Program-made: the position numbers and the translations under genes | Notes under the pieces: model-generated | The model's database searches: none | Seen by the model: only the letters and a program-made list of their open reading frames with translations | Told to the model about the DNA's origin: nothing | Assembly: GCF_965662505.1 (NCBI RefSeq) | Contig: NZ_CBFIHX010000002.1 | Location: 1,948-65,947, forward strand | DNA from: Pseudomaricurvus sp. | GTDB lineage: Bacteria > Pseudomonadota > Gammaproteobacteria > Pseudomonadales > Cellvibrionaceae | Direction: 5' to 3' | DNA length: 64,000 bases | In this document: positions 31,917 through 37,109 of the stretch, in pieces | Layout of the letters: every line of letters starts with the position of its first letter | How positions within the stretch are numbered: the first letter of the stretch is position 1

Positions 31917-33047
31917 ATGATGGCGAACGCAGGAACACCTTTGGAGCGCTATCAGGCTGATCTGAAAAAAGACGGCTTTAACTACGATCCTGCTCAGGAG
32001 ATGGCGGTTAAGCTGCTGCAAGACCTGTATGACCGCTTGGTGACGGGGTGGCAAAAAGAGCGGGCTCCCAAGGGGCTTGTCGGGCGTCTGAAGAACGTCT
32101 TTGGGGCCCCGCCGCAGCGCGAATTGCAGCGAGGCCTGTATTTTTGGGGCGGCGTCGGTCGCGGCAAAACCTATCTGATGGATAACTTCTACGAGAGCCT
32201 GCCTTTTTCCGACAAAATGCGGGCTCATTTTCACCGCTTTATGCGTCGTGTGCATCAGGAATTGCGCTCGCTGGATGGTCAGAAAAACCCGCTCGACACC
32301 GTGGCGGACCGTCTTGCCGCAGAGGCGCGGGTAATTTGTTTTGATGAGTTCTTTGTGTCTGACATTACTGACGCCATGATTTTGGGGACTTTGATGCAGG
32401 CGTTGTTTGATCGCGGCGTGTCGCTGGTTGCAACCTCCAATATTGTGCCAGATGGCCTTTATAAAGACGGTCTGCAGCGGGCTCGATTCCTTCCTGCCAT
32501 CGATATGTTGAACCAGCATACGCAGGTGGTGAATGTGGATGGCGGGGTGGATTACCGTCTGCGGGCTCTGGAGCAAGCCGAGTTGTACCACTCACCGCTG
32601 GATGCTGAAGCCGATGCCAGCTTGCTGACCAGTTTTGAGAGTTTGGTGCCGGACAAGTCCGAGATTCGCGCCAATACCTCTATTGAGGTCGAGGGACGCC
32701 CTATCCAGGCGCGTTTTGAGGCGGACGACGTGGTCTGGTTTGATTTTATGGCGCTGTGCGATGGCCCTCGTTCCCAGAACGACTATATTGAACTGGCCAA
32801 GGAGTATCACGCTGTCTTGGTGGCGAATGTTCCTGCGCTGGCACGGGATACCGATGATCAGGCACGCCGGTTTATCAATATGGTGGATGAGTTCTACGAC
32901 AGGAATGTAAAGTTGATTATTTCGGCGGCGAATCCACTGGCAGAAATCTACGGTGGCGGAAAGCTCAACTTCGAGTTTGAGCGCACAGTCAGTCGGCTGC
33001 TGGAAATGCAGAGTCAGGAGTATCTGGCCGCCCCTCATCGGCCTTAG
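31917..33047 (+). CDS. zapE: Cell division ATPase ZapE (AFG1 family)
   Basis: YFWGGVGRGKTYLMD, HFHRFM, CFDEFFVSDITDAM, RTVSRLLEMQ. Confidence 0.96.
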   Translation: MMANAGTPLERYQADLKKDGFNYDPAQEMAVKLLQDLYDRLVTGWQKERAPKGLVGRLKNVFGAPPQRELQRGLYFWGGVGRGKTYLMDNFYESLPFSDKMRAHFHRFMRRVHQELRSLDGQKNPLDTVADRLAAEARVICFDEFFVSDITDAMILGTLMQALFDRGVSLVATSNIVPDGLYKDGLQRARFLPAIDMLNQHTQVVNVDGGVDYRLRALEQAELYHSPLDAEADASLLTSFESLVPDKSEIRANTSIEVEGRPIQARFEADDVVWFDFMALCDGPRSQNDYIELAKEYHAVLVANVPALARDTDDQARRFINMVDEFYDRNVKLIISAANPLAEIYGGGKLNFEFERTVSRLLEMQSQEYLAAPHRP

Positions 33048-33996: not shown

Positions 33997-34051
33997 TACG
34001 TTTCTGCAAAGAGAATCGTCTTGCTTTGGCGGTTCGACTTGCACAAAATTG

Positions 34052-34083
34052 GCCCAGATTGCATACAGTCTGGGCTTTTTTTT
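34052..34083 (+). terminator. Rho-independent terminator after rpsI
   Basis: GCCCAGATTG-cata-CAGTCTGGGC followed by T8. Confidence 0.85.
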
Positions 34084-34126: not shown

Positions 34127-34155
34127 TTGTCAGGGGGGGGTAACTTCTTTACTAT
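34127..34155 (+). promoter_or_regulatory. Putative sigma-70 promoter of the pet operon with G8 in the spacer
   Basis: TTGTCA-N17-TACTAT; the spacer begins with GGGGGGGG (34133-34140). Confidence 0.55.
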
Positions 34156-34287: not shown

Positions 34288-34887
34288 ATGAGCAATGACG
34301 GAGTGAACGCAGGTCGGCGCCGTTTTCTGACGGCCGCTACCTCTGTAGTTGGGGCTGCAGGTGCGGTGGGAGTTGCTGTTCCTTTTGTGGGTTCCTGGAA
34401 CCCCAGCGCCAAGGCCAAAGCGGCCGGTGCGCCAGTGAAAGCGAATTTAAATAATATCGAAGAAGGCCAGATGGTTGTCGTAGAGTGGCGCGGTAAGCCT
34501 GTCTATGTTGTACGCCGTACGGCAGAAACTCTCGCCAACCTCCCCAAGCTCAATGACGAGCTTCGCGACCCTGAGTCGGTTGAGCCTCAGCAGCCTGAAT
34601 ACGTGAAAGGTGTGGCCAGAACCATCCCGGGTAAAGAAAAATTTCTGATCCTGCTGGGTCTGTGTACTCACTTGGGTTGTGCTCCGATGTATCGCCCGGA
34701 AGTGGGTGCCGAAGATTTGGGTGGTGATGAGTGGTTAGGTGGTTTCTTCTGCCCGTGCCACGGTTCTAAATACGACCTTTCCGGCCGGGTTTACAAGGGC
34801 GTTCCTGCCCCGACGAACCTGGAAGTTCCCCCACACTCATACGACACTGACACGGTCATTACCGTCGGTGTGGATCAGGAGGCTTAA
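34288..34887 (+). CDS. petA: Ubiquinol-cytochrome c reductase Rieske subunit
   Basis: Tat motif RRRFL; Rieske boxes CTHLGC and CPCHGS. Confidence 0.98.
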   Translation: MSNDGVNAGRRRFLTAATSVVGAAGAVGVAVPFVGSWNPSAKAKAAGAPVKANLNNIEEGQMVVVEWRGKPVYVVRRTAETLANLPKLNDELRDPESVEPQQPEYVKGVARTIPGKEKFLILLGLCTHLGCAPMYRPEVGAEDLGGDEWLGGFFCPCHGSKYDLSGRVYKGVPAPTNLEVPPHSYDTDTVITVGVDQEA

Positions 34888-34889
34888 GA

Positions 34890-37109
34890 ATGAGCAAATG
34901 GACTGATTTTATGGGTTGGGTTGACGCACGTTTGCCGGTGACGCGCGCGTGGGAAACCCACATGAGCAAGTATTACGCTCCCAAGAACTTTAACTTTTGG
35001 TATTTTTTCGGGGTTCTCTCGATTTTGGTACTGGTTAACCAGCTGTTAACCGGTATCTGGCTGACCATGAACTACACGCCCAGTGCCGAAGAGGCGTTTG
35101 CCTCGGTGGAATACATCATGCGTGATGTGGACTACGGCTGGCTGCTGAGGTACATGCACTCCACAGGCGCTTCCGCATTCTTTGTGGTGGTCTATCTGCA
35201 CATGTTCCGTGGCCTGATGTACGGTTCCTACAAGGCTCCTCGCGAGCTGGTGTGGATTTTCGGTATGACCATCTATCTGGCGCTGATGGCCGAAGCCTTT
35301 ATGGGCTACGTGCTGCCGTGGGGACAGATGTCCTATTGGGGTGCCCAGGTTATTGTTTCCCTGTTTGGTGCAATTCCAGTTGTGGGTGATGATCTGGTTC
35401 AATGGATTCGCGGTGATTACCTGATCTCCGGTGCGACCCTGAACCGCTTCTTCTCTCTGCACGTGGTTGCGTTGCCGATTGTGATTCTGGCTCTGGTGGT
35501 CATGCACATTCTGGCACTGCACGAAGTGGGTTCCAACAACCCGGACGGCGTTGAAATCAAGAAGAACAAAGATGAAAACGGCGTGCCGAAAGATGGCGTT
35601 CCTTTCCATCCCTTCTACACAGTCCATGATCTGGTGGGCGTGACGGTATTCCTGTTTGTTTTCTGCTTCGTTCTCTTCTTTATGCCAGAGATGGGCGGGT
35701 TCTTCCTGGAGTATGCCAACTTTGAAGTGGCTAACGGTCTGAAAACCCCTCCGCACATTGCGCCGGTTTGGTATTTCACACCTTTCTACGCCATCCTGCG
35801 GGCTGTTACCATTGATATTGGTCCACTGAGTTCCAAGTTCCTGGGTCTGGTGGCCATGGGCGGTGCGATTGCGATTCTGTTTGTCTTGCCGTGGCTGGAT
35901 AAGAGTCCTGTGAAGTCCATGCGTTATAAAGGCTTTATGCCTCGCGTATCGCTGATGTTGTTTGCGGCCATGTTCGTTGTACTGGGTTACCTGGGTGTGA
36001 AAGCGCCTACGGAAGGTCGTACAGTTCTGGCTCAGCTGGCGACGGTGTATTACTTCGCTTACTTTATCCAAATGCCGATGTTCACCAATCCGCTGAAGAA
36101 GCAGACGGGTATTGTGAATATCGTCATCAGCCTGTTGCTGGGTGCGTTGCTGCTGAAGCTGTCTTGGGTAGGCTCTGACAAGTACCCGCTGTTTATCAGC
36201 CTGTTTGGTACTGTGATGGGTCTGTTTGTTGCGGCAACACCTTGGTTAACCGCCAAAGATGGCGTCGAGCCCGAGCCTGAGCGTGTGCAGTCCAAAGGCT
36301 TGCCGAAAATGCTGGTTTGGGGTGGCTTTATTCTGTTCCTGTTCCTGACCATCGCACCCATCAAAGCGGTTGCTGCGGAAGGGGCTTTTAATTGTGGTGC
36401 CATCCAGTGTGATGAGATGGTGCCAGACTTGAAAGACAAAGAGTCCCTGCAACGTGGTGCCAAGTGGTTCGCTAACTACTGCATGGGCTGTCACGCAGCA
36501 AAGTTTTCACGCTACCAGCGTGTAGCGGATGACCTGGGTATTCCTCATGAAGTCATGTTGGATAACATCGTCTTTGGCGACCAGAAAATCGGTGAGCTGA
36601 TGGAAATTCCCATGCAGCCAAGTCAGTCCAAAGCCTGGTTTGGTGCCTCGCCACCGGATTTGACACTGGTTGCCCGCTCTCGTTCTCCGGAGTGGCTCTA
36701 CACTTATTTGCGCAGCTTTTACGCCGATGACACGCGCCACACTGGCGTTAACAACAAGGTCTTCGATAAGGTTGCCATGCCGCACGTGATGCTTGAGCTG
36801 CAAGGCTTGCAGGAGTGCGCGCCGGGCCCGAAACTTGACCACCACGGTAAAGTGATTCGCGATCCGGTGACGGGTGAAGCCATTGCTGAAGCCGAGTGTG
36901 GTAGTCTGCAAGTTGGCAAGGTGAAAGGGACCATGGATGAAAAGGAATTTGATCAGGCCATATACGATCTGGTGAATTTCCTGGAATACATTGCTGAGCC
37001 GGTTGCGGTTGATCGTGAGCGCATCGGTGTCTACGTGCTGTTGTTCCTCGCCGTATTGTTTGTTTTTGTCTACCTGTTGAACCGCGAATACTGGAGAGAA
37101 ATCCACTAG
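34890..37109 (+). CDS. petBC: Fused cytochrome b / cytochrome c1 polyprotein
   Basis: One 739-aa ORF: cytochrome b heme-His motifs (YMHSTGAS, YLHMFRG, FSLHVV, VMHILALH) and PVWY, then c1 with CMGCH, PPDLTL and a C-terminal anchor ending LLNREYWREIH. Confidence 0.93.
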   Translation: MSKWTDFMGWVDARLPVTRAWETHMSKYYAPKNFNFWYFFGVLSILVLVNQLLTGIWLTMNYTPSAEEAFASVEYIMRDVDYGWLLRYMHSTGASAFFVVVYLHMFRGLMYGSYKAPRELVWIFGMTIYLALMAEAFMGYVLPWGQMSYWGAQVIVSLFGAIPVVGDDLVQWIRGDYLISGATLNRFFSLHVVALPIVILALVVMHILALHEVGSNNPDGVEIKKNKDENGVPKDGVPFHPFYTVHDLVGVTVFLFVFCFVLFFMPEMGGFFLEYANFEVANGLKTPPHIAPVWYFTPFYAILRAVTIDIGPLSSKFLGLVAMGGAIAILFVLPWLDKSPVKSMRYKGFMPRVSLMLFAAMFVVLGYLGVKAPTEGRTVLAQLATVYYFAYFIQMPMFTNPLKKQTGIVNIVISLLLGALLLKLSWVGSDKYPLFISLFGTVMGLFVAATPWLTAKDGVEPEPERVQSKGLPKMLVWGGFILFLFLTIAPIKAVAAEGAFNCGAIQCDEMVPDLKDKESLQRGAKWFANYCMGCHAAKFSRYQRVADDLGIPHEVMLDNIVFGDQKIGELMEIPMQPSQSKAWFGASPPDLTLVARSRSPEWLYTYLRSFYADDTRHTGVNNKVFDKVAMPHVMLELQGLQECAPGPKLDHHGKVIRDPVTGEAIAEAECGSLQVGKVKGTMDEKEFDQAIYDLVNFLEYIAEPVAVDRERIGVYVLLFLAVLFVFVYLLNREYWREIH

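Follow-up and report, generated by a model that had tools for sequence, protein, structure and literature searches.

A fused cytochrome b-c1 gene with a two-helix insert in the cytochrome b tail of a Cellvibrionaceae bacterium

We analyzed petBC, the gene for cytochromes b and c1 of the bc1 complex, in a 64,000-nucleotide stretch (the window) of the Pseudomaricurvus sp. assembly GCF_965662505.1, contig NZ_CBFIHX010000002.1. In this Cellvibrionaceae bacterium (genus Aestuariicella/Pseudomaricurvus), the housekeeping petB and petC form one gene, a single open reading frame (ORF) of 739 codons without internal stops at 34890-37109 on the forward strand. A large group of marine and soil gammaproteobacteria normally has b and c1 fused, as the literature already records. 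What appears to be new is a fast-evolving, patchily distributed insert of two helices inside the cytochrome b tail, which would give an 11-helix cytochrome b. Our best explanation as a whole, held with good but incomplete confidence, is an independent fusion, present here as its long allele, which yields a cleaved polyprotein and carries the insert as a peripheral hairpin. The parts of the gene are as follows.

34890-37109, +, petBC, fused cytochrome b-c1 gene, 739 codons and a stop (ORF, Pfam)
34890-36092, +, cytochrome b proper, residues 1-401, helices A-H (Pfam, PDB 8smr, Foldseek)
36093-36260, +, two-helix hairpin insert, residues 402-457, helices at about 407-428 and 432-452 (alignments, hydropathy, AlphaFold2)
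36270-36290, +, PEPERVQ, residues 461-467, ancestral C-terminal tail of cytochrome b (alignments)
36300-36374, +, internal signal-peptide-like helix, residues 471-495, ending P-I-K-A-V-A (motif counts, PetC alignment, AlphaFold2)
36366-36374, +, A-V-A codons of the A-x-A site (sequence)
between 36374 and 36375, +, predicted signal peptidase I cut between A495 and A496 (motif counts)
36375-37106, +, predicted mature cytochrome c1, residues 496-739 (Pfam, PDB 8smr, hydropathy)
36393-36410, +, CGAIQC (C502/C507), near the predicted mature c1 N-terminus (alignment counts)
36480-36494, +, heme motif CMGCH, residues 531-535 (invariant in alignment)
about 37008-37082, +, C-terminal membrane anchor of c1, hydrophobic helix 707-735 (hydropathy)

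Three Pfam domains cover the protein: PF00033 (Cytochrome_B) at residues 27-214 with 227.1 bits against a cut-off of 27.2, PF00032 (Cytochrom_B_C) at residues 281-389 with 125.2 bits against 20.7, and PF02167 (Cytochrom_C1) at residues 516-737 with 62.3 bits against 22.8. In an alignment of 53 sequences, the heme bL and bH ligands H90, H104, H191, and H206 (helices B and D) and the residues P292-V-W-Y295 at the position of the PEWY-type Qo motif were invariant, and CMGCH was invariant among the aligned fused proteins. The gene is the only c1 locus and the only bc1 of the genome. A first-pass annotation, made from the letters alone, had given residue numbers for the parts of the junction and of c1 (407-428, 432-452, 461-467, 471-495, 502-507, and 531-535); all of them were exact, and the A-V-A codons lie where it had placed an A-x-A site, at 36366-36374.

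The junction was compared with that of unfused genes. Unfused PetB ends ...MPFYTRMEKTKPVPERVTG before its stop, and PetC then starts with MKK, continues with a hydrophobic region (h-region), and reaches an A-x-A site followed by A(E/G)G. Short fusions read ...MPFWTRREKTLPEPERVQ-M-KGL...PIKAVG/AEG, the slash marking the predicted cut, or ...PVPERVT-M-DGG... at the joint; the intergenic stop has been lost, and the tail of cytochrome b is retained along with the signal of c1. In the long form, to which the window belongs, R-x-E-K-T-x is replaced by N-P, about 56 residues, and L-T-A-K-D-x-V-x. The extra helices are thus an insert within the cytoplasmic tail of cytochrome b, between helix H and PEPERVQ, and not the joint between b and c1. 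The first-pass annotation had reported two extra hydrophobic segments after the last cytochrome b helix; the two hydrophobic helices are real, but they are inserted inside the cytochrome b tail and are missing from close relatives, even within the genus. Hydropathy and AlphaFold2 coherently give two extra helices and then a signal-like helix. The tail itself reads ...KPVPERVTG at the end of unfused PetB and PEPERVQ in the window, with P463 and R465 invariant in 173 fused proteins, and both the junction of the clade, ...PxPxR[VTLI]x-(M)-..., and its motif P-[IL]-K-A-V-[AG] are present in the window.

AlphaFold2, run with the 53-sequence alignment, placed helices at 408-426 and 434-455 and the signal helix at 473-495, with a predicted local distance difference test (pLDDT) score of 83-96 for the block and 88-96 for the hairpin helices alone. 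Both hairpin helices are strongly hydrophobic in 116 of 116 long forms (17-residue Kyte-Doolittle median 2.3-2.4, minimum 1.6). None of residues 397-462 was invariant or nearly so in the 53 sequences. The majority residue had a frequency of 0.47 in the hairpin, 0.88 in cytochrome b, and 0.69 in the signal helix, and DNA identity within the genus was 54-80% for the hairpin versus 79-92% for cytochrome b. As it has no conserved polar or invariant residue and a low residue frequency, the hairpin contains no cofactor site and is under little constraint beyond hydrophobicity. Close relatives do without it, which argues that it is dispensable, and our guess is that it is most likely a dispensable peripheral addition comparable to a supernumerary subunit.

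Supernumerary helices are known in other bc1 complexes, in subunit IV of Rhodobacter sphaeroides and as extra helices of Aquifex aeolicus complex III (PDB 6KLS). As we suppose for the hairpin, these are single or paired, peripheral to the catalytic core, and without cofactors; they are separate subunits or terminal extensions of unrelated sequence, whereas the hairpin is an internal insert in the cytochrome b tail. A sequence relation of the hairpin to these helices was not found in a search of the PDB, and Foldseek with the AlphaFold2 model returned ordinary cytochrome b chains only. We also asked with hhalign whether the hairpin arose by tandem duplication of helices G-H followed by divergence; the result was not significant, and this origin was rejected. 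Residues 347-401 aligned in register with a score of 18.5 with the tail and 15.1 without it; column-shuffled profiles gave 12.6 +/- 2.3, with a maximum of 22.8, and an equally good score came from the end of helix F.

Fused proteins fall into two length classes, a short one of about 676-701 amino acids (aa; typically about 684) and a long one of about 738-770 aa (typically about 740), to which the window protein belongs. The hairpin query was matched in 185 of 277 family genomes and in 27 of 50 genera, a few of these being weak matches to the flanks only, in short forms; the hairpin is absent from the short fused forms and from all unfused PetB. A tree of 180 rows that left out the linker requires at least 11 changes between the long and the short state, 8-9 of them forced by well-supported branches. 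A single gain with vertical descent, which would make the long forms one clade, was rejected by the approximately unbiased (AU) test on a 64-row tree that left out residues 371-496 (log-likelihood difference, delta lnL, 727; p-AU 1.7e-6). The long forms had been grouped with knowledge of the first tree, but the margin was very large. In the 64-row tree, the 'body' of the window protein is closest to the short form found in a genome of the same genus (89%).

The short forms all keep the ancestral ...W-T-x-R-E-K-[TC]-x-P-E-P tail, as in unfused PetB. The long forms read ...F-T-N-P, the hairpin, and L-T-A-K-D-x-V-x-P-E-P, and all those of the window's subclade enter the hairpin from ...FIQMPMFTNP. 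Long and short proteins of Simiduia are identical through the 40 residues after the insert, the signal helix included. On the body tree, short forms separate the lineages that carry 'Q-type' hairpins; the hairpins themselves group as one supported set (97). The simplest account, which we advance tentatively and at less than even confidence, is that homologous recombination has reshuffled two old alleles of the region formed by the end of helix H and the tail. The broader proposal, that the hairpin is a facultative and exchangeable module of cytochrome b whose long and short alleles have long coexisted and recombined among Cellvibrionaceae and their neighbours, is somewhat more doubtful still. 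If it holds, sister species and even congeners build bc1 with either an 11-helix or a 9-helix cytochrome b, and the hairpin would tune the periphery of the complex, for instance supercomplex contacts, access of lipid or quinone, or assembly of the polyprotein.

The mosaic may instead have arisen from repeated loss with convergent tails. Retention of the ancestral tail in every short form makes simple deletion of long forms unlikely, and the identity of the long and short Simiduia proteins also speaks against repeated deletion. Ancient paralogy may be a further source of the mosaic; two paralogues, one long and one short, have no present-day support, as a single c1 locus was found in 91 of 91 high-quality family genomes sampled and two loci in none.

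The first-pass annotation had also predicted processing by signal peptidase I at an internal signal. Counts at the cleavage site were taken over 173 fused proteins. Position -6 is P in 173 of 173, -3 is A in 165, and -2 is V in 169; position -1 is A in 104, G in 66, and S in 3, a small residue in every protein, and +1 is A, S, or G in 171. The site is in column-for-column register with the A-x-A site predicted in unfused PetC signal peptides, and 35 residues separate the predicted cut from CMGCH. This is the usual length of the mature c1 N-terminus. A signal peptidase I (LepB) gene is present in the genome. The charges comprise KK before the hairpin, one K in its turn, K/R/K/K between the hairpin and the signal helix, and an acidic stretch past the site, an arrangement that fits the positive-inside rule.

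Our working model for processing is FbcH of Bradyrhizobium japonicum, the b/c1 precursor of Thony-Meyer et al. (1989, Cell 57:683; 1991, PNAS 88:5001). Like the window gene, it is one b and c1 gene downstream of a Rieske gene, and it has an internal hydrophobic signal (about 21 uncharged residues, as read from its sequence) that ends in small residues before mature c1. The window has the one frame behind the Rieske gene that is typical of an FbcH-type polyprotein, and its sequence features also point to a signal peptide inside the chain, with a site for signal peptidase I ahead of mature c1. Processing of FbcH was reportedly shown by experiment; for the window protein it is predicted.

We consider it probable, from these features, that the polyprotein is cleaved by signal peptidase I. 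The chain would be inserted co-translationally, helices A-H and the hairpin leaving its end in the cytoplasm, and helix 471-495 would direct export of the c1 domain from within the chain. The cut by signal peptidase I would then fall after A-V-A495. The expected products are a cytochrome b of about 495 aa with 11 membrane helices (the eight of A-H, the hairpin pair, and the signal helix, which stays attached) and an ordinary mature c1 of 244 aa that starts AEGAF... and is held by its own C-terminal helix.

Several points weigh against this picture. A literature search found no experimental or biochemical work on any gammaproteobacterial b-c1 fusion, and the case for cleavage is drawn from sequence alone. 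As a whole, the AlphaFold2 model is of middling quality (mean pLDDT 67), and its c1 head, modelled without heme, is poor. At about 20 residues, the h-region is long compared with those of cleaved signals and could be an uncleaved anchor, and the c-region is conserved far beyond the needs of an ordinary signal peptide, which could reflect packing instead of cleavage. The chief rival is accordingly an uncleaved polyprotein, with helix 471-495 as a permanent linker in a single b-c1 chain of about 80 kDa and 12 membrane helices. The uncharged run before the site measures 15-23 residues in the fusions, about a membrane span, versus 9-12 in unfused PetC, and the helix contains the invariant residues G470, V476, F483, and P490, as expected of a stably packed helix. 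On the other hand, the small residues at -3 and -1 and the proline at -6 are kept in 165-173 of the 173 proteins, in register with the PetC site, and the internal signal of FbcH is equally long. Thony-Meyer et al. are said to have found FbcH cleaved in 1991. On balance, we regard an uncleaved chain as unlikely.

Much less probable is that c1 is also, or mainly, translated alone from an internal start at M474, the fusion being a read-through by-product. Its ATG (36309-36311) has a weak AAGG about 11 nucleotides (nt) upstream, and the ancestral petC Met at position 468 is retained in 69 of the 173 fused proteins. However, the window has Ser at that ancestral position, a peptide from M474 would have no positively charged n-region, 83 of the 173 proteins contain no Met anywhere in 466-478, and the upstream frame is unstopped in all of about 170 relatives. 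The Ser in the window and the Met-less junctions of these 83 proteins suggest that c1 can only be made through the polyprotein.

The additional pair of cysteines noticed by the first-pass annotation, CGAIQC, is present and conserved. A Cys pair at this position occurs in 162 of 173 fused proteins versus 0 of 7 unfused PetC, and C502/C507 may form an extra periplasmic disulfide that accompanies the fused state. The CxxxxC pair lies 7-12 residues past the predicted c1 cleavage site.

The uninterrupted frame between b and c1 was borne out by independent assemblies. Two DNA metagenome and two metatranscriptome assemblies jointly cover most of 35800-36600 without an inserted or deleted letter, and one DNA contig of 1,022 nt covers 35844-36600 with 1 mismatch and 0 gaps. 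The same open frame was found in 9 of 10 same-genus genomes searched (83-95% identity), while the tenth (G002) carries a short fused form. The exact protein of the window is present in NCBI and UniRef, where the members of its 90% cluster are named 'ubiquinol-cytochrome c reductase' and come from Aestuariicella/Pseudomaricurvus hydrocarbonica and A. albida. In spite of the draft state of the genome (245 contigs), the idea that the frame stems from faulty assembly or sequencing, or that the gene is decaying, is refuted by these indel-free assemblies, by a protein 95% identical to that of a same-genus genome, by a frame kept in hundreds of relatives, and by the invariance of all heme ligands and motifs in the only bc1 of the genome.

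The origin of the fusion was examined in a cytochrome b tree of 379 columns, which held 42 gammaproteobacterial fusions, six Bradyrhizobium-type fusions, and unfused genes; the FbcH references were a Bradyrhizobium daqingense locus and the B. japonicum 'cytochrome b/c1' of 687 aa. All 42 gammaproteobacterial fusions formed one clade (Shimodaira-Hasegawa-like approximate likelihood ratio test, SH-aLRT, 96), nested in unfused genes of Pseudomonas, Halomonas, Marinobacter, and Endozoicomonas, and the same clade had a support of 99 in the 180-row tree. The six Bradyrhizobium-type fusions formed a separate clade (SH-aLRT 99) within unfused alphaproteobacteria. With each clade nested in the unfused genes of its own class, the gammaproteobacterial fusion is independent of alphaproteobacterial FbcH in origin. 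The window gene therefore lies outside the FbcH orthologous group of Bradyrhizobiaceae and other alphaproteobacteria, and the two fusions do not share common descent.

The protein comparisons agree with the independent fusion that had been proposed at first pass. The window protein is 34% identical overall to B. japonicum FbcH, and its c1 half is 28-30% identical to FbcH c1 versus 55-60% to unfused gammaproteobacterial PetC. The spacing of the helix-D heme histidines (H191...H206; 35460-35507 in the window) is 15, as in the beta- and gammaproteobacterial relatives checked, and 14 in FbcH and the other alphaproteobacteria checked. FbcH further differs from the window protein in its alpha-type c1 and in having no two-helix insert. 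Horizontal transfer of an fbcH orthologue from Alphaproteobacteria would fit the same domain order and the similar length of the short form (684 versus 687-690 aa), but it is refuted by the separate clades, the low identities, the beta/gamma-type spacing, and the gammaproteobacterial synteny. The one-residue difference in helix-D spacing conveniently tells the two fusion lineages apart.

These comparisons show that the fusion arose inside a gammaproteobacterial lineage to which Cellvibrionaceae, Microbulbifer, Porticoccaceae, Halieaceae, and Pseudohongiella belong. Two adjacent genes lost the stop between them, while the end of cytochrome b and the signal peptide of c1 were preserved. Many unfused relatives already have petB and petC in one frame, separated by a single stop and 0-10 codons, as in the Thiobacillus junction ...PERVTG-stop-MKRLK, so that one small mutation would be enough to fuse them. 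Loci with petB, a stop, and petC in one frame were seen in alpha-, beta-, and gammaproteobacteria (L043 and L047 from Thiobacillus, L094-L099, and L105-L107), and genomes with same-frame unfused genes include G114, G210, G134, G098, G130, G418, G409, and G115.

Fusions were counted only from ORF scans of the fetched loci and from called proteins. The ORF scan found single fused frames of 665-770 aa in Cellvibrionaceae (Cellvibrio, Endobugula, and others), Microbulbifer, Porticoccaceae, Oceanicoccus, and Pseudohongiella, as well as in Halieaceae (Halioglobus, Luminiphilus, and Seongchinamella). A search for fused-length proteins gave 2,018 matches, the best 120 of which all carry b and c1 domains. 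The two genes are separate in Pseudomonas, Halomonas, Marinobacter, Endozoicomonas, Marinobacterium, Thiobacillus, and Burkholderiales. Apparent alpha- and betaproteobacterial fusions, suggested by read-through frame length, were rejected after the ORF scan resolved them as petB-stop-petC in one frame. The fusion is the rule in several families of the order, with hundreds of relatives. Names such as 'cytochrome b' or 'ubiquinol-cytochrome c reductase' in databases conceal the c1 half of such fusions. Two metagenome-assembled genomes labelled 'Enterobacteriaceae' and 'Hyphomicrobiales' (L040 and L042) carry a Pseudohongiella-type fused petBC; L042 was assigned through the tree and L040 through its linker sequence (RKEATKLPPERVTGRFITIPQL), and the taxon labels are probably a binning or taxonomy error.

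The fusion is not peculiar to this genome, given its spread, its annotation by NCBI, and a report from 2014. The enforcement of a 1:1 stoichiometry, which the first-pass annotation had inferred from the fusion, is speculative. Degli Esposti 2014 (Genome Biol Evol 6:3238, PMC4986455) describes a cytochrome b/c1 fusion for '13 only' gammaproteobacteria; Teredinibacter turnerae is mentioned there as having several copies, along with 'closely related free-living bacteria'. With this report and routine annotation, the b-c1 fusion per se is already described. The Teredinibacter-type fusion is the same fusion, in the same clade, as that of the window, and the closest matches listed include proteins of Teredinibacter, Marinimicrobium, Simiduia, Agaribacterium, and Eionea. 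The author of PMC4986455 holds that all proteobacterial fusions descend vertically from Planctomycetes-like proteins, whereas our cytochrome b tree shows two separate origins inside unfused alpha- and gammaproteobacterial lineages; the several Teredinibacter copies given there also contrast with the single locus in each of our 91 family genomes. The passages of that paper that were consulted do not mention the insert, the long and short forms, or processing. A full-text literature search for Teredinibacter together with cytochromes b and c1 found no further paper.

The closest solved structure is the bc1 of Pseudomonas aeruginosa (PDB 8SMR/8SNH; Di Trani et al. 2023, PMC10556555). Its cytochrome b in 8smr matched the window with an E-value of 2.8e-207 and 74% identity, its cytochrome c1 matched the window c1 with 8.8e-75, and the window cytochrome b is 74-77% identical to unfused Pseudomonas PetB. 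P. aeruginosa has the same type of gene neighbourhood and shares the c1 Cys pair C643/C670. Unlike the window, it has separate polypeptides and an 8-helix cytochrome b, with no hairpin and no C502/C507 pair.

The findings touch no long-standing open question, and b-c1 fusions are already familiar to bc1 specialists. 'One gene, two cytochromes' arose at least twice in Proteobacteria, in the gammaproteobacteria by the simplest route, the loss of a stop between genes that are in frame in many relatives. The gammaproteobacterial fusions provide a second large natural group in which an internal signal peptide in a polytopic membrane polyprotein can be studied. The long and short alleles amount to a natural with/without experiment on supernumerary helices of bacterial complex III, and the comparison can be made in cultivable, partly genetically tractable Cellvibrio, Saccharophagus, Microbulbifer, and Simiduia.

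The gene order around petBC is rplM-rpsI-petA-petBC-sspA-sspB, the usual gammaproteobacterial housekeeping context, with 2 nt between the petA stop and the petBC start. The neighbour that opens the operon is the following.

34288-34887, +, petA, Rieske iron-sulfur subunit, first gene of the operon (Pfam UCR_Fe-S_N, with a twin-arginine translocation (Tat) signal, and Rieske)

Downstream of rpsI there is a strong terminator-like hairpin (34051-34076; 11 pairs and a T run), and upstream of petA a sigma-70-like site (34127-34155). Together, these suggest that petA-petBC is a transcription unit of its own; a terminator-like site was not found in the interval between petBC and sspA. Upstream of rplM, an ORF at 31917-33047 carries the Walker A motif GGVGRGKT. 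It resembles a ZapE/AFG1-family ATPase, a protein usual at that gammaproteobacterial position.

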